Made by a program: the position numbers and the translations under genes. Below the pieces are notes generated by a model that had not been told where the DNA came from, made no database searches, and saw nothing but the letters and a program-made list of their open reading frames with translations. A DNA stretch of 64,000 nt, from the NCBI GenBank assembly GCA_016285085.1, contig JAEEQA010000001.1, positions 23,608 through 87,607 on the forward strand. The letters run 5' to 3'. Source of the DNA: Bacteroidales bacterium (GTDB lineage: Bacteria > Bacteroidota > Bacteroidia > Bacteroidales > WCHB1-69). Position 1 is the first letter of the stretch; every line of letters starts with the position of its first letter. Positions 2-36,917 of the stretch are shown here, piece by piece.

Positions 2-3000
2 CTGATTACTCCGGAGAGTGTGCAAGGGAATTCACCCTGTCCGGATGCCCCGACGGTTACCGACTATGACGGCAATGTTTACAATACCGTCCAGATTGGC
101 AACCAGTGCTGGATGCGCGAGGACCTCCGCTCCACCCACTTTGCCAACGGAACCCGCCTGACCCCCTATGTGGATCCTTTTGTGGGAACCTACCAAGATG
201 GTCAGTATCGTGATTTGAACATTCCGTATTATGTCCATTTCCGTGCCGATTCCAATGCATACGTCATGTACTCCATCGCTGCCGCATTGAACGGATCTTA
301 TGATCACGGCACGACGGCTTTGCGCGGTATCTGTCCTCAGGGTTGGCATCTGCCCTCCTTGGAAGAATGGCAGACACTGACTTCTTCCTATTCTCTGGAT
401 CAGCTGCTTGCTTCCGGCTCCAACACCACCGGTTTCTCCGGCATTGCAATGTCGTTTGAAAACGAGGGCGGCAACCTCCGTTATCTTACCGCTTCCTATG
501 ACCTTAATAATACGGGAATCTATTTGTCAAATGGAGCCCTTTATGGTGAATTAACCCATTCTTACGATAGCCAAACATCATCTTATGCGGATAATTACAA
601 CATTGATTTCCATCTGGTAAGATGTGTCAAGGGTGAAGGTGTACTTACCATACCTACCGTGGAGCTCCTTAAGGAATGCGACACTTGTTTCGAAATTCAC
701 CCCTATGTGGATTCAGCGGCCATCGTCAATTGGAAGTCTTATACTGACGGCGGTAGCATGATTATCGACCAAGGTGTCTGCGTGCACGCTGTCGATCTCA
801 ACGACCCGAACTTTTATCAGTGGGATGAGAATTCCATCACAATGGAAAACAGTATGGTGTTCTCCAGCTATAGTACAAATCTGGGCGAGATGGAGATTGA
901 AGTCACCGGCCTTGCCCCCAACACCACCTACTATGTGCGCGCCTTCGCCACCAACGCCAAAGGCACGGCCTATAGTAACTTAATCCTCCAGATGAACACA
1001 CCGGAGCGTATGGGACAGCCCTGTCCGGATGCCGCCACGGTCACCGACTACGACGGAAATGTCTATGCCACCGTCCAGATCGGCAGCCAGTGCTGGATGA
1101 AGGAAGACCTCCGCACCACCCACTATGCCAACGGTACGCTGATCCAGCGCCTTACCAACTATGCGAATATGCAGGACGGCTACGCCTATTACTATAGTAC
1201 GGCTCCTCTGAGACCCACGTTCGACTATATCCCCGGCAATACTCAATATGCGGGTCTTAATCTGCCGACTGAACAACAGCCCACCCAGATTTTCTACTTC
1301 GCAGATGCAGTGGTCAACGGTTCGCATGACCCCCAATCACCAATGATTCAGGGTGTGTGTCCGCAAGGATGGCATGTGCCGACTTTGGATGAATGGGGAG
1401 AACTTTACGCGTATCTTGGCAATGATTATCTTTCCAAACTTTCGGTTAATGGCTCCAATGTCACAGGTTTTGATGGAAGCGGTGGTTGTGGTAGGTCTGA
1501 ATACAATGGGGAGCTTATCACCAGTGTAGCCAACGATCCTTTTTACTTTTGTTACTTTTCTTCTGATGTAAGATCTTTTGGAGGAGATCTTTATTTGATG
1601 ACGAACAATTCTGAAGTAACTCTTTTCAATCATTATGCTGAGTTGGTGCGCTGCATCAAGGGTGACGGTATTACGACGCTGCCGAGTACAAAGGTCGTGA
1701 CCGCTGCCGACGTCACCTCCACCACAGCCAACCTCTGGGGCGAGAACTGCACGGACGGCGGTTCCAGCCTTACCTCCTACGGTGTGTGCTGGAGCAGCGA
1801 GAACCAGCAGCCCACCACGGCCGACAGCTCCCACAGCTTCAACAGCGATTACATCGGGCGCTACTACTACATGGCAGAAAATCTGCTGGCCAACACGACC
1901 TACTACTTCCGCACCTTCGCCACCAATGCCAACGGCACCGTTTACTCTGATTCGGTGATTTCCTTCACCACCCCGATCATGATGGGTCTTCCCTGCCACG
2001 AAGCCGCCATCGTGACCGACTACGACGGCAATGTCTATAACACCGTGCAGATCGGTAACCAGTGCTGGATGAAGGAAGACCTTCGCACCACCCATTACGC
2101 CAACGGTACAGAAATACACAGTTTCACTTCATTTAGAGAGATGTTGGAGGGTTATCCTTACTATTATAATGAAAATCAAACCTATACATTCCAATCCAAT
2201 GTGCCTACCAACTATACTCCCACCAACAATGTGCCCGGTACCACATACGGTCAGCAGGCTTCTACGGGATATTTCTATTTCGGAGATGCCATCGTCAATG
2301 GCTCGCGCAACCATGGTGTGGAGCAGCTGCAAGGTGTGTGTCCGCAGGGATGGCACGTGCCCACTATGGCGGACTGGCAGGAGATGTTTGATTTGTTGGG
2401 CGAGAATTACCGCGATTTGATTTTAGCCAGCGGCTCCAATGCTTCCGGTTTCAGTGGCAACGAGCAGTATGCCCGTCCTACAAATGGCGGCCTGATGATT
2501 GAACAAACACCGTTCCCCTACTCAAGTTCAGAGGTGTTCTATATGAATGGCATCTGTTATTTGAAGGAATGGAATGGTTCCGGCAACAATTTCATGCAAA
2601 TTGGCAACTTGGTGCGTTGCATCAAGGGTGACGGCATCACGACTCAGCCGCAGACAAAGGTGGTGGCCGCAGCCGACATAACCCCCACCACCGCCAACCT
2701 TTGGGGCGAGACCTGCACCGACGGTGGTGCTAGCCTCACCTCCTATGGCGTGTGCTGGAGCAGCGAGAACCAGCAGCCCACTACAGCCGACAGTTCCCAC
2801 AGCTTCAACAGTGATTATGTAGGACGGTATTACTTCCAAGCAGGAAACCTGCTGGCCAATACCACCTACTACTTCCGCACCTTCGCCACCAATGCCAATG
2901 GCACCGTTTACTCCGATTCGGTGATTTCTTTCACCACCCCGATCATGATGGGTCTGCCCTGTCCTGATGCCGCCATCGTGACCGACTACGACGGCAACGT

Positions 3001-4789
3001 CTATAACACCGTACAGATCGGCAACCAGTGCTGGATGAAGGAAAACCTCCGTACCACGCATTACGCCAACGGAAAAATCATCAACCAGCATTACGCCGCC
3101 CAATATTATCCCCGTTATTACGAACTCCGCAGAACCACCGACGGCTATCTGTATCCTCTTGTTACCGCGCTGAACGGACTGCCCACCAACGAACCCGCAC
3201 AGGGCATCTGCCCTGATGGATGGCACGTTCCCTCTTTTGCGGAATACCAGACGCTCTTCAATACGTTGGGAGGAAACGAAGAGGCGCTTTCACTTCTGAA
3301 AGCCACCAGCCGTTGGACCACTCCCGGCACCAATGCCAGCGGCTTCGACTTGCTGCCCGTCGGTGAGTACTACTATGGCAATTTCTCCAACGAAGGTACG
3401 CTCCTCCAGACCTCTACACTTGCCTACAAATGGATGATTTATGACAATGAGATTCATGAAACGGGAGAAAGCAGCCCAACAGAAGATTTCGGTTCCGTAC
3501 GTTGCATCAAGGGCGATGGTCTGCCCAATGTTCCCACCGCCAGAATCATCTTTGTGGACAGCGTGGCCGCTACAACCGCCCAGGTGAACGGCGAGCTGCA
3601 GTACGATGGTGGTACCAACATCACCAAGTGGGGTGTGGCTCTCGGCGTGGAACCTTTCCCGACCGATGAAGTCACCTTCACCAACGATACCAACATCGGT
3701 GGCAGACAGTTCCATTTGGAGAACCTGACACCGAACACGCACTACTATGTGCGCATCTTCGCCACCAACGCTGCCGGTACCAACTACAGTGAAAACATGG
3801 AGTTCACCACACCGGAGATGCCTACCAGCCCGGTGACAGGCCCCTGCCCCGACGCTCCGATTGTGACCGACATGGACGGCAACGTCTATAACACCGTGCA
3901 GATCGGCAGCCAGTGCTGGATGAAGGAGAATCTCCGCACCACGCTCTTCGCCAATGGTATGGAAATTGATCCTGAAAACGGCAACAATCCGGCCAGATAC
4001 ATGGAACCCGATGCCAACTACCGCTATGGCTACACGGTCGGACGCTACGGATTTTTCTATAACTATGCCGCGGCTACCAACAATGCGCCGCACAACCATA
4101 GCGAAGCGGTACAGGGCGTTTGCCCACAGGGTTGGCATCTGCCGAACCGCAGCGAGTGGCAGACCCTGTATGCTACCGCCGCATCTTACGGAGATGCAGC
4201 CGCCGCGCTGACCGAAAACAGCGCGTTTTGGGCCGACGGACGTGAGCATACCAACATCACTGGCTTCTCCGCACGTCCAGGAAGCTATGCCTACGCCTCC
4301 TACGACACCACCGGCAATGCAGGATTTGGCAAAACTTTCTATTATGCCACAGCTGATTTCGACAGCGAGGCAATGGTGGCGGAAATGTATTACGCAGCCA
4401 CCTGCATTAACGGGCAACTTGACTTCACTTCGATGGCTACCAATATTTACATGCCGGTGCGCTGTATCAAAGGTGAAGGCGTCGCCTCTTTTGCCCCGAC
4501 CCTTGAAATAGAATACCGCGGAATTACCACCTCTGAGGTTTCAATTATGGGAGAATATGCCGACAACGGTCATTACATCACTGATTTTGAACTCTATATG
4601 GGTACCAATCCCAATGATATGGTGCAAGCCACATACGGCACTCCATACTATGGAGGCGGACAGTGGAACTATTTCTGGCTCTATAATTTGACACCGAATA
4701 CAACCTACTATGTGCAGATGTGTTTGATCTATGACAATGCACAACGAGTGTGCGTGGAGGGTTCCTTCACCACTAAGTCGGACGACTAG
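2..4789 (+). CDS. Partial giant surface/secreted repeat protein (5' end outside window). It has five tandem modules, each a FISUMP domain (Fibrobacter succinogenes major paralogous domain, TIGR02145-like) followed by an Fn3/Ig-like module.
   Basis: The frame is open from the window edge. Codons 2-19 (LITPES) match the inter-module linker TPE..PCPDA. There are five copies of TDYDGNVYNTVQIGNQCWMKENLRTTHYANG ... CPxGWHxP..EW ... VRCIKG, each followed by a GVCWS...TTYYFRTFATN module. TAG stop is at 4787-4789. Confidence 0.85.
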   Translation: MITPESVQGNSPCPDAPTVTDYDGNVYNTVQIGNQCWMREDLRSTHFANGTRLTPYVDPFVGTYQDGQYRDLNIPYYVHFRADSNAYVMYSIAAALNGSYDHGTTALRGICPQGWHLPSLEEWQTLTSSYSLDQLLASGSNTTGFSGIAMSFENEGGNLRYLTASYDLNNTGIYLSNGALYGELTHSYDSQTSSYADNYNIDFHLVRCVKGEGVLTIPTVELLKECDTCFEIHPYVDSAAIVNWKSYTDGGSMIIDQGVCVHAVDLNDPNFYQWDENSITMENSMVFSSYSTNLGEMEIEVTGLAPNTTYYVRAFATNAKGTAYSNLILQMNTPERMGQPCPDAATVTDYDGNVYATVQIGSQCWMKEDLRTTHYANGTLIQRLTNYANMQDGYAYYYSTAPLRPTFDYIPGNTQYAGLNLPTEQQPTQIFYFADAVVNGSHDPQSPMIQGVCPQGWHVPTLDEWGELYAYLGNDYLSKLSVNGSNVTGFDGSGGCGRSEYNGELITSVANDPFYFCYFSSDVRSFGGDLYLMTNNSEVTLFNHYAELVRCIKGDGITTLPSTKVVTAADVTSTTANLWGENCTDGGSSLTSYGVCWSSENQQPTTADSSHSFNSDYIGRYYYMAENLLANTTYYFRTFATNANGTVYSDSVISFTTPIMMGLPCHEAAIVTDYDGNVYNTVQIGNQCWMKEDLRTTHYANGTEIHSFTSFREMLEGYPYYYNENQTYTFQSNVPTNYTPTNNVPGTTYGQQASTGYFYFGDAIVNGSRNHGVEQLQGVCPQGWHVPTMADWQEMFDLLGENYRDLILASGSNASGFSGNEQYARPTNGGLMIEQTPFPYSSSEVFYMNGICYLKEWNGSGNNFMQIGNLVRCIKGDGITTQPQTKVVAAADITPTTANLWGETCTDGGASLTSYGVCWSSENQQPTTADSSHSFNSDYVGRYYFQAGNLLANTTYYFRTFATNANGTVYSDSVISFTTPIMMGLPCPDAAIVTDYDGNVYNTVQIGNQCWMKENLRTTHYANGKIINQHYAAQYYPRYYELRRTTDGYLYPLVTALNGLPTNEPAQGICPDGWHVPSFAEYQTLFNTLGGNEEALSLLKATSRWTTPGTNASGFDLLPVGEYYYGNFSNEGTLLQTSTLAYKWMIYDNEIHETGESSPTEDFGSVRCIKGDGLPNVPTARIIFVDSVAATTAQVNGELQYDGGTNITKWGVALGVEPFPTDEVTFTNDTNIGGRQFHLENLTPNTHYYVRIFATNAAGTNYSENMEFTTPEMPTSPVTGPCPDAPIVTDMDGNVYNTVQIGSQCWMKENLRTTLFANGMEIDPENGNNPARYMEPDANYRYGYTVGRYGFFYNYAAATNNAPHNHSEAVQGVCPQGWHLPNRSEWQTLYATAASYGDAAAALTENSAFWADGREHTNITGFSARPGSYAYASYDTTGNAGFGKTFYYATADFDSEAMVAEMYYAATCINGQLDFTSMATNIYMPVRCIKGEGVASFAPTLEIEYRGITTSEVSIMGEYADNGHYITDFELYMGTNPNDMVQATYGTPYYGGGQWNYFWLYNLTPNTTYYVQMCLIYDNAQRVCVEGSFTTKSDD

Positions 4790-10226: not shown

Positions 10227-10255
10227 GTAGAGACGCCATATTATGACGTCTCTAC
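10227..10255. repeat. GTAG-capped palindrome, GAGACG family.
   Basis: GTAGAGACGcCATAtTATGaCGTCTCTAC lies between the sigma gene stop and the next gene's promoter. Confidence 0.7.
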
Positions 10256-20524: not shown

Positions 20525-20600
20525 GCGGTAGTAGCTCAGTTGGTAGAGCGGCAGCTTCCCAAGCTGCAGGTCGCGGGTTCGAGACCCGTCTACCGCTCCA
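20525..20600 (+). tRNA. tRNA-Gly (anticodon CCC), CCA encoded.
   Basis: Manual cloverleaf: acceptor GCGGTAG/CTACCGC, D-arm GCTC-AGTTGGTA-GAGC, anticodon arm GCAGC-TTCCCAA-GCTGC, T-arm GCGGG-TTCGAGA-CCCGT, discriminator T, then CCA. 76 nt. Confidence 0.9.
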
Positions 20601-26525: not shown

Positions 26526-26660
26526 GAGACGCACAAAACGCGCGTCTCGATATGGTTTCATTTGTTGTGGATGCGTAAATATGCAGAGACGCATCTTTAT
26601 TGTAATTTGTAGAGACGAAAAACATCTCATTGTAGAGACGCAAAATTTTGCGTCTCTACA
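26526..26660. repeat. Cluster of GAGACG/CGTCTC motifs, including a perfect 30-bp GTAG-capped palindrome (26631-26660).
   Basis: GAGACGCacaaaacgcGCGTCTC (26526-26548). AGAGACG occurs at 26585, 26611 and 26634. TGTAGAGACGCAAAATTTTGCGTCTCTACA. Confidence 0.8.
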
Positions 26661-27891: not shown

Positions 27892-28302
27892 CTATTTGTT
27901 GGGGTTCTCGCAGAACTCGGTCAGCACGCCGCCGGTGCTTTTCGGGTGGAGGAAGCCGATCATGAGGCCTTCCGCGCCCGGGCGGGGGGTCTTGTCGATG
28001 AGGCGCACGCCCTTCTCTTCCACTTCCTTCAGTGCGTTGGCGGCATTGTCCACGCAGAAAGCCACGTGGTGGATGCCCTCACCGCGCTTCTCGATGAAGG
28101 AGGCGATGGTGCTTTCGGGGCAGGTAGGCTCCAAAAGCTCGATTTTGGTCTGTCCCACCATGAAGAAGGCGGTCTTCACCTTCTGGTCGACGACCTCTTC
28201 CGTAGCGTAGCACTTCACGCCAAGGATGTTTTCGTAATAGGGAATTGCATCCGCCAAACTCTTCACGGCGATGCCAAGGTGTTCAATATGTGATATTTGC
28301 AT
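27892..28302 (-). CDS. mce: Methylmalonyl-CoA epimerase (VOC/glyoxalase fold).
   Basis: MQISHIEHLGIAVKSL..KIELLEP..GEGIHHVAFCVDN.. . I prefer the ATG at 28302. A TActTTTG box lies upstream (minus strand, about 28337-28344). Confidence 0.8.
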   Translation of the reverse strand: MQISHIEHLGIAVKSLADAIPYYENILGVKCYATEEVVDQKVKTAFFMVGQTKIELLEPTCPESTIASFIEKRGEGIHHVAFCVDNAANALKEVEEKGVRLIDKTPRPGAEGLMIGFLHPKSTGGVLTEFCENPNK

Positions 28303-28385
28303 AGTAAAAAGATTTGTCCATTTTAGGCGTGCAAAAGTAAGAAAATTATTGATACTCTTCACGCTTGAAACGTCCATTTTTTACT

Positions 28386-28547
28386 GCAAAAATTGCAAGG
28401 CGATGTGCGACTTCGGAGTCGAGCCGTATTTCTGAAAGTATTGTTTTATTTGCACTCACCTCGGAGAGGTGATATTTTATTAGCCCCAAATAAGGTCGTC
28501 GCACCCGATTTTCTCCGAAAAATACCGACCTCATCACCTTGATTTGG
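28386..28547. repeat. Copy 1 of a hairpin-rich, about 150-160-nt conserved element (candidate structured RNA or recombination site).
   Basis: It shares blocks AATTGCAAGGCG, TGCGACTTCGG and GCACTC with copy 2. Hairpins are GCAA-aaa-TTGC, CACCTC-GGA-GAGGTG and CCAAAT...ATTTGG. Confidence 0.5.
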
Positions 28548-28745
28548 CATAATCACTTCAAATCCCGAAAACCTATTTTTTTACAAATCTTATATTTTTT
28601 TGTCAAAACACTGTTACTTTTTATTGAAACTATGTAATTTTTTATTTTTATGATTTTCAATGAAATATTTTCAAAAACACCTTGACAAAAGGGGTATTGT
28701 TGTTGTATCTTTGCAAACAAGAAAATTTCATTAAAATTTGCAATT

Positions 28746-29306
28746 ATGGAAAACGATTTAATTCTTAGAGTTGAAGAAAAAATGATCACCCTGCGTAACC
28801 AGCAGGTGATTCTGGACTGCGATGTCGCTGAATTGTACGGTGTAGAAACCAAGGAAATTAATCAAGCTGTTCGAAACAATCCGAAAAAGTTCCCTGAAGG
28901 TTACATTTGGACATTGGATGAGCAGGAGAGAGGTGAACTGGTCAAAAATTTTGACCGGTTCGAAAAACAAAAGCACTCTTCTGTTCTTCCACGCGCTTTC
29001 ACCGAAAGAGGGCTCTATATGTTGGCGACGATTCTGAAAAGTTCGAAGGCTGTGGATACTACCATTGCCATTGTGGAGGTATATGCCAAATTGAGGGAAT
29101 TGTCACGGGTGATGGTGGAACTTCCTCAGCAAGAGGAAGGTACCGTTATACAAAAAGAGCTGCTGCATCGTGGCGGCCAGCTGATAGAGGATCTTGTCAC
29201 TGACGTGCTACCGAAACAGAGCACTGAGACATCTTTTGAACTAAACCTTGCCATGTTCAAATTTCGCCATTCGGTACGGAGGGGGAAAGACGGGGGAAAG
29301 GATTGA
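28746..29306 (+). CDS. ORF6N (KilA-N-like DNA-binding) domain protein.
   Basis: ITLRNQQVILDCDVAELYGVETKEINQAVRNNPKKFPEGYIWTLD. AT-rich relative to neighbours. Own TAtcTTTG box at about 28717. Confidence 0.8.
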   Translation: MENDLILRVEEKMITLRNQQVILDCDVAELYGVETKEINQAVRNNPKKFPEGYIWTLDEQERGELVKNFDRFEKQKHSSVLPRAFTERGLYMLATILKSSKAVDTTIAIVEVYAKLRELSRVMVELPQQEEGTVIQKELLHRGGQLIEDLVTDVLPKQSTETSFELNLAMFKFRHSVRRGKDGGKD

Positions 29307-29311
29307 TCCAG

Positions 29312-29459
29312 GCAATTGTTTAACAACCGACAATTGCAAGGCGGCTTGCGACTTCGGCACTACACCATATTTCCGAGAATGTTGATTTTCAGCACTCGTC
29401 CCGAAGGGACGACATCTTATTAACCCCAGATAAGTCCGCGCAGCGGATGCAATCTGGGG
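29312..29459. repeat. Copy 2 of the hairpin-rich conserved element.
   Basis: Same order of conserved blocks as copy 1. Hairpins are GCAATTGT..ACAATTGC, CGTCCC-GAA-GGGACG and CCCCAGAT..ATCTGGGG. Confidence 0.5.
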
Positions 29460-29684
29460 TAGGCGATGGCCTGTGCGCCCGCCCGCGGCACGGGCGGCGG
29501 GTACGGAAACAAACCACAGATGATGCCGCGGAAGGGAGGATGGTATAGTCGAAGGCAGAACCATAAAATGGAGAAGATTCCGCTGCCCTGACGGACAGCG
29601 GAATGGTGCGGAATCCCGGTGGGAGAAATGAGGGAAAGGACTCATACATGGTGCTATGGCTCGGGAGCGTCCCTTGACAATCTG

Positions 29685-31520
29685 CTACCTTGTCACCACT
29701 ACCTTCCGTGGGGCGCGCTTACCGACCTTTACCATATAAACGCCCTCCGACAATGCCTTGTTGGGAACGTTGTGCCCCGTCATGTCATATACGGATACCG
29801 CTTCCCCTTCAGCACCTTCAACAATGATGCAACCGTCATGCGAATAGACAGTTATATCATCAATGGCACTCTCGTCGATACCGGAATTCGGGGCAAAATA
29901 GCCAGTCAACGTGTAGCTGGAACTCAAACCAGGATATATGGTGATGTAGAATGGATTATCCTGAAAATCATATTCATCGACACCATCGTATTTCCAATAC
30001 AGAAAGTGATAACCATTGTTTGGTGTGGCTCTCAGTTCGGCAGTTTCACCAGTCCAATAGGTGCCGCTGCCACTGACCGTGCCCCATGCATTGTTGTTGG
30101 AACGCACCGTCAGTTGGGTGGCAGTGCTATTGGCTTCGAAGTATGCAGTATATATAACATCACTTTCAACCGTGAAAGTAAGGGGATTTTCGGTGGCCTG
30201 GTACACGGCAGATGGGTTACATTTGTAATACCATTCCCAATGGGTGAAGTAGCATCCGCTGGCCGGTTCGGCGGTGATGGTTACCTCACTGCCCACAGTG
30301 GCGAAGTAAGCACCATGTACGGAACCATAACCGTCGGGGTAGCTATTATACTGAAAATACGCCTGGTCGGAAAAGTTGGCGACATAATAGACATTGCTGT
30401 TGGCCGTGAACGTCACAGGATTTTCATAAGCCCGATAGTGGTTGTCTGGGTCGTCAAGTGTGTTCCATTCCCAGTACGAGAAGCAATGGCCGCTGTCGGG
30501 CACGGCAGTAAGCGTAACGTCAGTACCCACCTCATAGACCCCTCCACCGATGACATGGTCGTTTCCGAGAGGAAGGGCATCAATGCCATGTACTCCAGTT
30601 TGAACGTTGCGTCCCGTGGGTATGGCGGTGTAGGCCCGGATGGCCCACGAAATGTTGTGGTAATCGGAATTCGGAGCGTACCATGGGTGAAATGTGTTGA
30701 AGTGTGTCCACCCTGTCTCCGGAGTCCAGATGTAATTGCTGTTGGGGTTGCCGCAATAACCTGTTCCACAAATCGACAAAGTCTGATACGATAGGGTCAT
30801 CGTGCAACTCAAGATTACCCATAGGGGTTGTGTGCTGTCGATGGGTACAGGATTATTGAAACGGATAAGTCTCCATTGGGCACTTTCGCCGGGTACGATA
30901 TAGTTCTGCGTATGGATCCTATTCTGTGGACTTTCGTCTCCGCCTTGCCACAATTCGATGGTATATGTACAGGGGATGCTAACTGTACCGTCGAAGTCAG
31001 GTTCCAGACAGGCTTCCACTTGCGGTATTTCTGTCACGCCATTCAATACGCTGGGGTCGAACTTCGCACCCCAACGGTAGAAAGTGGCCGTGTCAGAGGT
31101 GTTGTCCCATATTCGGGAAATTTGTGTCCCGCTAACATATTGCAGTGTGTCGCCGTCGCGCACGGGTGCGAACACTGCATCTATGGACAGCGTATCGCAC
31201 GTGGGCACGTGTCCTTCATAGTCCAGCCCAATGTAAGTGTGATGAAGCAAATCAGTTATGACTCCCGTTGAGTCACCATAGTAGTTCCAATTCACAAATC
31301 GTGCGTTGGGATAGGGGTGTGCTGCTATATAACGTTCTTGAAAATAACCGATATACACATCCCCAATTCCAAAATTGCTGGCAGAATGCCATCCACTGAG
31401 GTCGGGTAAATACCCCAGTGTGGAGTCGTTAACGCTAAGGTTGAGGTAAAATCAGGGCGTCTGTGCCATAGCATTTCCCGCCATCAGCAGCCATACTGCA
31501 AGGAATAATTTTTTTATCAT
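29685..31520 (-). pseudogene. T9SS cargo protein with Listeria-Bacteroides (InlB B-repeat-like) repeats and a C-terminal sorting domain, interrupted by one in-frame TGA after the signal peptide.
   Basis: ATG at 31520 gives MIKKLFLAVWLLMAGNAMAQTP, then TGA (31452-31454), then the same frame continues into the 557-aa ORF. Repeats such as GYHFLYWKYDG / CYFTHWEW / HCFSYWEW. C-terminal sorting domain ..GVYMVKVGKRAPRKVVVTR. Confidence 0.7.
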
Positions 31521-36877: not shown

Positions 36878-36917
36878 CCTGTAGTAGAGACGCAAAATTT
36901 TGCGTCTCTACTACAGG
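36878..36917. repeat. Perfect 40-bp palindrome of the GAGACG family.
   Basis: CCTGTAGTAGAGACGCAAAATTTTGCGTCTCTACTACAGG. Confidence 0.85.

Follow-up and report, generated by a model that had tools for sequence, protein, structure and literature searches.

In a 64-kb stretch of DNA from an uncultured rumen Bacteroidales (the window), the 1.38-kb spacer between a methylmalonyl-CoA-epimerase-like gene and a convergent Flg_new_2 surface-protein gene holds a single hairpin-rich non-coding element of ~250 nt, here named E, that is interrupted by an 808-bp cassette carrying an ORF6N gene, with E positions ~26-157 occurring on both sides of the cassette. We consider it likely that E is a structured non-coding module of accessory character which occupies a small hotspot for defence genes and was split by, or recombined with, the ORF6N cassette; both an action of E as RNA and the origin of the duplication are matters of inference.

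The sole open reading frame (ORF) of the spacer encodes a 186-aa ORF6N protein (28746-29306, plus strand). Same-strand segments on either side of it (28391-28509 and 29332-29448) are 72.5% identical over 120 nt (blastn within the window, E-value 6e-9) and have in common a 26-nt block, AATTGCAAGGCGNNNTGCGACTTCGG (two occurrences against none in 100 shuffles), in agreement with an initial annotation of this DNA that had described homologous, same-orientation segments bracketing the gene. Neither a third copy of the repeat nor a second ORF6N gene was found within the 64-kb window, and the arrangement of repeat and ORF6N is the same in five independently assembled contigs, ruling out an assembly artefact. 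Intact single copies at three other loci (L145, L238 and L247) define E. A profile built from these copies and searched against the window with nhmmer matched 28352-28504 over profile positions 2-157 (E-value 2e-38) and 29313-29534 over positions 26-245 (E-value 4.5e-44), and a covariance model (R1) scored 220.9 bits at 29333-29540. The left copy has the 5' end but is missing ~90 nt at the other end, the 3' arm of helix P4 among them; the right copy lacks the first ~25 nt and has the whole 3' domain. These overlapping matches, together with intact relatives free of ORF6N, identify one interrupted element, not two genes. What had been taken for two complete copies are thus overlapping halves of one ~250-nt element, and the extent first given to them was too small, the left piece beginning at 28355 and the right piece reaching ~29540. 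E was recovered solely from uncultured rumen Bacteroidales, as five to six independent sequences. The parts of the split element are as follows.

28354/28355: left boundary of E, from comparison with L252, L246 and L247
28355-28504, plus strand: left piece of split E (profile ~2-157), cut off at the cassette start; it consists of an unstructured conserved 5' part (28355-28390), the GCAAGGCG..TGCGACTTCGG block, the P3 hairpin and the 5' arm of P4
28375-28504, plus strand: copy 1 of the duplicated segment, the ~130-nt overlap of both nhmmer matches (blastn 72.5% over 120 nt)
28500-29307, plus strand: ORF6N cassette (808 bp), with an AT-rich leader of ~245 nt, a promoter and the coding sequence (28746-29306), ending at the stop codon
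29313-29540, plus strand: right piece of split E (profile 26-245), comprising copy 2 of the duplicated segment (29313-29448) and the 3' domain missing from copy 1

Five sequences containing the structured body of E were aligned and folded on the plus strand with RNAalifold, which predicted six helices. Standard pairs occupy 95.4% of the cells in these helices, compared with at most 52% when the partners are slid, and nine pairs show double changes, compared with 3.0 +/- 1.2 in shuffles (0/500). The double changes are confined to P3, P4 and a small hairpin inside P4, and such compensatory changes support selection for pairing in P3 and P4. P3 corresponds to a helix already noted between the two copies (CACCTC-GGA-GAGGTG and CGTCCC-GAA-GGGACG), and its three double substitutions are upheld; independent relatives carry CACCCC-GTA-GGGGTG and CACCTC-GAA-GAGGTG. 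In P4, five of the nine pairs are doubly changed and pairing is 100% in six sequences, including a distant copy at L017, with four different arm sequences (those of relatives being CCCCACGT/ACGTGGGG, ACACCGTAC/GTGCGGTGT and ACCCCACAT/ATGTGGGGT).

28456-28472, plus strand: P3 hairpin of copy 1, TCACCTC-GGA-GAGGTGA, then TATTTTATTA; terminator-like
29396-29412, plus strand: P3 hairpin of copy 2, TCGTCCC-GAA-GGGACGA, with three compensatory pairs relative to copy 1
29423-29460, plus strand: P4 helix, ACCCCAGAT (29423-29431) with ATCTGGGGT (29452-29460)
29435-29447, plus strand: hairpin inside P4, TCCGC-GCA-GCGGA
29341-29357/29514-29529, plus strand: long-range helix P1, predicted by RNAalifold
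29365-29374/29496-29506, plus strand: helix P2, predicted by RNAalifold
29469-29478/29485-29495, plus strand: helix P5, predicted by RNAalifold
29483-29490 and 29524-29531, plus strand: invariant complementary octamers CCGCGGCA and TGCCGCGG, candidate helix P6, with a 33-nt spacing in all copies

The earlier claim that covariation reflects selection on nucleic-acid structure is supported for two hairpins and not for the rest of what had been proposed. The helix equivalent to P4 holds in copy 2 and fails in copy 1, which lost the 3' arm at ~28504: the supposed partner, ATTTGG (28542-28547), falls in the cassette leader and is missing from the same cassette in L255 and L115, so the pairing is not homologous. 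A further helix proposed at the 5' side (GCAATTGT...ACAATTGC, 29312-29337) aligns to the unstructured 5' part of E, and its counterpart in copy 1, GCAA-aaa-TTGC, is not kept in relatives (GGCAAAAATCGC). P1, P2 and P5 show one-sided changes of G.U type only (C<->U opposite G or G<->A opposite U), which pair on the plus strand only, and in the octamer pairing of the distant L017 copy a U-A replaces the terminal C-G. With an RNAalifold covariation term of -4.62 on the plus strand and -0.43 on the minus strand, and fold z-scores of -3.85 versus -2.6 for the two strands of the right piece, the evidence modestly favours folding of the plus strand, which is the sense strand of ORF6N. The left copy alone folds no better than shuffles (z -1.2).

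The initial annotation had not recognised the motif as a tRNA, tmRNA or other common structured RNA, and E matches no known Rfam family: no Rfam 15 match was obtained on either copy or on intact E. Positions 28200-29700 gave short chance matches only at E-values up to 10, the intact copies of L145 and L238 gave no match on the element at E-values up to 1, and the single match in the window at the gathering threshold was a tRNA gene (20525-20597, 69.9 bits) unrelated to the element. ARAGORN found 0 tRNA or tmRNA genes in window positions 28200-29800, L145, L238 and L247. No reading frame is conserved in E, the frames differing among L145, L238 and L247, and the indels of the alignment do not come in multiples of three, with 1-nt and 5-7-nt ones in the region of a small minus-strand ORF (28346-28537); E is therefore non-coding, and that ORF, whose conservation as a protein would have undermined a structural reading, differs among the same three loci. 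An inverted-repeat scan of the three intact copies returned internal helices only and no terminal inverted repeats. Intact E had no BLAST match in plasmid and phage collections, an exact 23-base E pattern had none in 185,579 reference genomes, pattern scans of IMG/VR gave chance matches or nothing, and syntenic loci of 80 species, fetched with the epimerase protein, contained no E except for the distant partial copy at L017. The pattern used for a metagenome scan was overly degenerate, and 118 of the 120 listed stretches, from soil and other sources, had matched by chance; the true relatives of E among the metagenome matches listed number at least two, L145 and L238, neither of which has ORF6N nearby.

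Other identities for parts of E were tried and rejected. Reading the 5' part as a sigma-54 or extracytoplasmic function (ECF)-type promoter, or GUGAUGCCGCGGAAA as hammerhead-like, gave no model match or inconsistent spacing, and a helix that would close E by pairing CTCTTC with GAAGAG at its very ends is not preserved in L247. A 5' untranslated region or riboswitch of the epimerase operon is argued against both by the -7 box of the epimerase gene (TACTTTTG, 28339-28332), which sits between gene and element, and by close relatives without the element.

Two genes flank the spacer.

27892-28302, minus strand: methylmalonyl-CoA-epimerase-like gene, whose protein is 85-88% identical to homologues from rumen and horse-gut metagenome-assembled genomes (MAGs)
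29685-31358, minus strand: convergent Flg_new_2 surface-protein gene

Empty sites and single copies without ORF6N, which the initial annotation had suggested looking for, both exist among relatives. L252, which shares the gene order of the window (YkuD, GT2, SPOUT, Flg_new_2, epimerase), matches it at 99% identity as far as 28354; a 66-nt spacer follows, and both E and ORF6N are absent. L246 diverges at the same point (28354/28355) into queD/queE-like genes. L247, found via the epimerase protein and 96% identical on the epimerase side, carries one uninterrupted E at exactly the window site, with a PDDEXK_4 gene (2011-3213; weak PDC-S26 match) as cargo 3' of it. At L110 and L111, E is split by ORF6N and followed on its 3' side by a SoFic gene (PADLOC 3e-48; L110 2140-3126), and L112 and L113 combine other cargo (HepT, sigma-70) with a shortened right-hand E. 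The locus of L145 varies too: at the orthologous site, a DUF559 gene takes the place of E in L267, and L260-L266 are empty there. Given empty, E-only and other-cargo alleles across strains, E is accessory and located at a small hotspot that exchanges candidate defence and toxin-antitoxin genes. No target-site duplication was seen at 28354/28355 in comparison with L252 or L246, nor in L145 compared with L267, a weak test given right junctions that are not clean.

Three side observations concern the same site. The cargo directly 3' of E varies among SoFic, PDC-S26-like PDDEXK_4, HepT, sigma-70, HicA/HicB and Phd/YoeB (including L145 1926-2589, and L269). In L112 (1038-1451), the right-hand E has lost the P3-P5 hairpins, CCGTATTTCTGAAAGT being joined straight to TACGG, and has gained inserts that resemble repetitive extragenic palindromic (REP) sequences (CCCCTTCT..AGAAGGGG, GGCCGAAGGCCGGGGTAG), after which comes a second E 3'-end fragment. 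The identity of 65% in Flg_new_2 against 99% on the epimerase side between the window and L252 marks 28354/28355 as a sharp recombination boundary and Flg_new_2 as a hypervariable allele.

The inserted cassette is itself a mobile unit of defined extent. Nucleotide homology at 89-90% in other contexts (L255-L259, L268-L273) covers exactly 28500-29307, and its protein occurs in other neighbourhoods at 96-97% amino-acid identity, between an S9 peptidase and a 687-aa gene, OEP efflux and a 687-aa gene, or OEP and Phd-YoeB. It has its own promoter (TTGACA at 28682 and a Bacteroidetes-type TATCTTTG at 28706) and no terminator of its own. The protein matches Pfam ORF6N (PF10543) with 98.9 bits against a cut-off of 27.8 (E-value 2e-28) and PADLOC PDC-S05 (model PDLC04849) at 4.6e-74, residues 6-181 aligning to 7-181 of the 183 model positions; by this essentially full-length profile match the gene is a member of the PADLOC candidate defence family PDC-S05. 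The family is very large: at least 7959 homologues were found at E-values up to 1e-10 among the candidates scored, a protein scan of IMG/VR gave no close relative, and sequence searches of NCBIfam and the PDB with the protein returned nothing useful. PDC-S05 is reported to be among the most frequent candidate defence families in bovine rumen MAGs (PMC13356809), and in E. coli the phages T7, T5 and T4 plated less well in the presence of one family member (bioRxiv 10.1101/2024.09.26.614923). Unlike the window protein, the member tested has a RhuM domain and derives from a different environment; moreover, the likeness to PDC-S05 (ORF6N/RhuM-type single-gene systems) concerns the inserted gene and not E, no non-coding partner being described for the family. 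The leader (28500-28745) is unusually long at ~245 nt, AT-rich and conserved across cassette lineages, and carries near-palindromic TTTCAATGAAA-type motifs just 5' of the promoter; the leader could be an operator.

A terminator-like P3 followed by a T-rich tail was flagged in both copies of the segment, upstream of the gene (28456-28482) and ~90 nt downstream of it (29396-29422), with TATTTTATTA as the tail of copy 1 and the weak CATCTTATTA as that of copy 2. L115, L255 and L269 have, as the homologous 5' hairpin, a clean textbook terminator. We propose that the hairpins of E are kept by selection for plus-strand pairing and are probably transcript-level structures here. Because a cassette without a terminator lies between terminator-like P3 hairpins, the pieces of the element plausibly insulate and terminate it, and the conserved sequence of E may serve at the same time as portable homology for swapping cargo genes. 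A more specific proposal, which we put forward tentatively and think rather doubtful, is that E represents an undescribed structured non-coding RNA of ~210-250 nt that travels in rumen Bacteroidales with diverse single-gene anti-phage cassettes (ORF6N/PDC-S05, SoFic, PDC-S26-like, HicAB), either as the landing pad and homology anchor for their exchange in the absence of a dedicated recombinase or as an insulating or regulating RNA component. PDC-S05-type ORF6N genes are among the commonest candidate defence genes of the rumen, and this locus bears on how such one-gene units spread. Empty, E-only, E-plus-cassette and E-plus-other-cargo alleles side by side make cassette movement testable, and raise the question of whether hairpin-rich intergenic elements provide homology and transcriptional insulation for defence cassettes that have no recombinase. 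E is in addition a candidate structured element absent from Rfam with real covariation in two helices.

Other ORF6N cassettes are likewise bracketed by direct repeats that abut the cassette, the upstream repeat stopping 237-264 nt short of the ATG and the downstream one beginning 0-30 nt past the stop codon. These repeats measure 119 nt at 95% identity in L110, 38 nt at 97% in L115, where they are a plain terminator, and 92 nt at 87% in L123, where they are a GTAGAGACG-type REP cluster; in each case they are drawn from the hairpin element present at the site, as E is here, and the repeats of other cassettes are unrelated in sequence. Variable length, target-derived sequence, gene conversion and the lack of a recombinase gene fit recombination between repeated hairpin elements better than target duplication of the transposase type. 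The most likely route would be unequal exchange, or the Campbell-type entry of a circle that bore a single repeat, with gene conversion between the flanking copies probably behind the 95% identity in L110 as against 72% here. A simple one-crossover (Campbell) history with L247 as the ancestral allele does not fit: E of L247 is copy-1-like in its 5' half, and its P4 and 3' domain differ from both window copies.

Both forms of the cassette occur at the OEP locus, with a downstream repeat in L115 and without one in L269, L270 and L273. In the latter three, the 3'-end motif of E, TGATGCCGCGGAAG, contains the ORF6N stop codon, and the upstream flank has the GCAAGGCGG block of E fused to a terminator. 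The cassettes of L269-L273 have E-like 5' (TTTTACGGCAAAGATCGCAAGGCGG) and 3' (TGATGCCGCGGAAG) motifs around ORF6N and no internal E, a pattern suggesting that the same end motifs belong to E and to the ORF6N unit and that the two may be alternative cargo versions of a single element family; the similarity between the 5' part of E and the cassette leader is marginal (score 33 versus 19.6 +/- 3.4 in shuffles). When L115 (3566-3654) is set beside L255 and L269, an 8-nt TGATGCCG is seen at the ORF6N stop codon and at the E 3' end, and the allele without the ~88 nt between these repeats resembles a deletion between them, or the reverse, an insertion.

The topology of the locus recalls islands in tRNA and tmRNA genes, in which a gene-bearing insert lies between same-orientation partial copies of a structured target (attL/attR), one side is a nearly complete copy and empty and occupied alleles coexist. 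E could be a ~210-nt small-RNA gene with its promoter in the conserved 45-nt 5' part, serving as an attachment site as tRNA and tmRNA genes do, into which the cassette was integrated by a site-specific recombinase supplied in trans with crossover in the nearly identical block AATTGCAAGGCG..TGCGACTTCGG. We regard this as unlikely. It would accommodate a structured body preceded by a conserved 5' stretch without structure, a minimum-free-energy fold of L145 that closes the 5' and 3' ends, the 26-nt block as the longest identity between the copies, G.U-type changes that are specific to the plus strand, and a right copy (26-245) that retains nearly the whole structured part. However, E is dispensable and changes locus (absent from L252 and L246, with DUF559 in its place in L267), degenerate or deleted E is tolerated in L112 and L113, the 5' part has no recognisable Bacteroidetes -33/-7 promoter, and there is no integrase nearby. 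The duplications of other cassettes in the ORF6N family, moreover, differ by locus (the REP cluster of L123, the terminator of L115), against a fixed att core. Unlike the known islands, the insert is only 808 bp, the duplication is ~130 nt at ~72%, and E is not a known RNA gene, nor a core one. Of the attL/attR-like hybrid copies suggested initially, the topology survives, with target-derived direct repeats (2-157 / 26-245), intact copies and an empty site; a recombinase and a fixed core crossover site were not found, and E is itself accessory. Integron cassettes with attC sites offer another likeness, as single-gene units between structured sites whose structure is better conserved than their sequence and in which defence and toxin-antitoxin cargo is common. 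The ORF6N cassette differs in having its own promoter and neither integrase nor attI, E consists of several separate hairpins where attC is one imperfect hairpin of 57-141 nt with R''/L''-L'/R' boxes (R' = GTTRRRY), and in L110 the next gene (SoFic) has no E after it.

Alternatively, E may be selfish low-copy DNA of the MITE (miniature inverted-repeat transposable element), PATE or REP type, its hairpins serving transposition or recombination as single-stranded DNA, with the ORF6N cassette having landed in E or sharing its ends as a gene-carrying version; we think this possible, though improbable on balance. Like REP/BIME, ERIC, Correia and MITE-like repeats, E is short (~250 nt), intergenic DNA with several hairpins bearing compensatory changes and variably present between close strains, and such repeats can supply terminator-like structures and are a frequent site of rearrangement. 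The E-like end motifs around ORF6N in L269-L273, the weak likeness of the E 5' part to the start of the cassette leader, and the abundance of other REP-like families in these loci point the same way. Against it stand a single locus in 64 kb, the lack of terminal inverted repeats, of target-site duplication at the L252/window and L267/L145 junctions and of a linked transposase, and the ordered hairpins with long invariant unpaired blocks, which are unusual for MITEs. That the two copies are paralogous, independently functional small-RNA genes, as had been suggested, we consider extremely improbable: they share an orientation and both keep P3 by compensatory changes, but neither is complete (copy 1 without the last ~90 nt, copy 2 without the first ~25 nt), the break points are the cassette ends, relatives carry one intact copy, and copy 1 alone folds like shuffles. 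Scarcely more credible is the suggestion that the repeats are binding sites for the ORF6N protein, whether operators or partition-like sites. The repeats do lie on both sides of the gene, and the ORF6N domain is predicted to bind DNA, yet the link is not obligate, E occurring without ORF6N in L145, L238 and L247 and close ORF6N cassettes occurring without E in L116, L117, L123, L125 and L255, and compensatory changes indicate intrastrand pairing, not a duplex recognition sequence.

Our preferred reading, of an accessory structured module split by or recombined with the ORF6N cassette, has to contend with several observations of its own. The only ORF of the insert is ORF6N, and no recombinase or transposase was found in or beside the unit of E and cassette; nor was a circular or excised form of the cassette observed. 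Flg_new_2 is just 65% identical in L252 and the right junction is not a clean insertion, so that E and the cassette may have arrived on a larger exchanged segment, and the differences of the L247 copy in P4 and the 3' domain do not fit a simple one-crossover history. In L238, P3 lacks the T-rich tail. In the fold itself, P6 octamer pairing competes with P1 and P5, leaving P2 as a pseudoknot only, and P1 and P2 have several broken pairs and no double substitutions; with one-sided changes in P1, P2 and P5, the predicted global fold of E is provisional. The z-scores of L145 hardly separate the strands (-3.4 versus -3.25), and the sample of E amounts to only the five to six independent sequences given above.

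Hairpin families other than E also populate these loci. REP-like palindromes of the form GTAGAGACG...CGTCTCTAC lie in intergenic positions of the window at 10227-10255, 26609-26659 and 36884-36911, for example in the metRS/OAD-beta spacer, and the same family forms the direct repeats around the ORF6N cassettes of L123 and L125, with the stop codon TAG inside TTGTAGAGACG. A different hairpin stands in the spacer between E and the stop codon of Flg_new_2.

29577-29604, no strand assigned: REP-like hairpin, ATTCCGCTGCCC-TGAC-GGACAGCGGAAT

The family to which it belongs ('GATTCCG...CGGAATGGTG') recurs beside the ORF6N cassettes of L115, L255 and L117, and is present on both flanks in L255.

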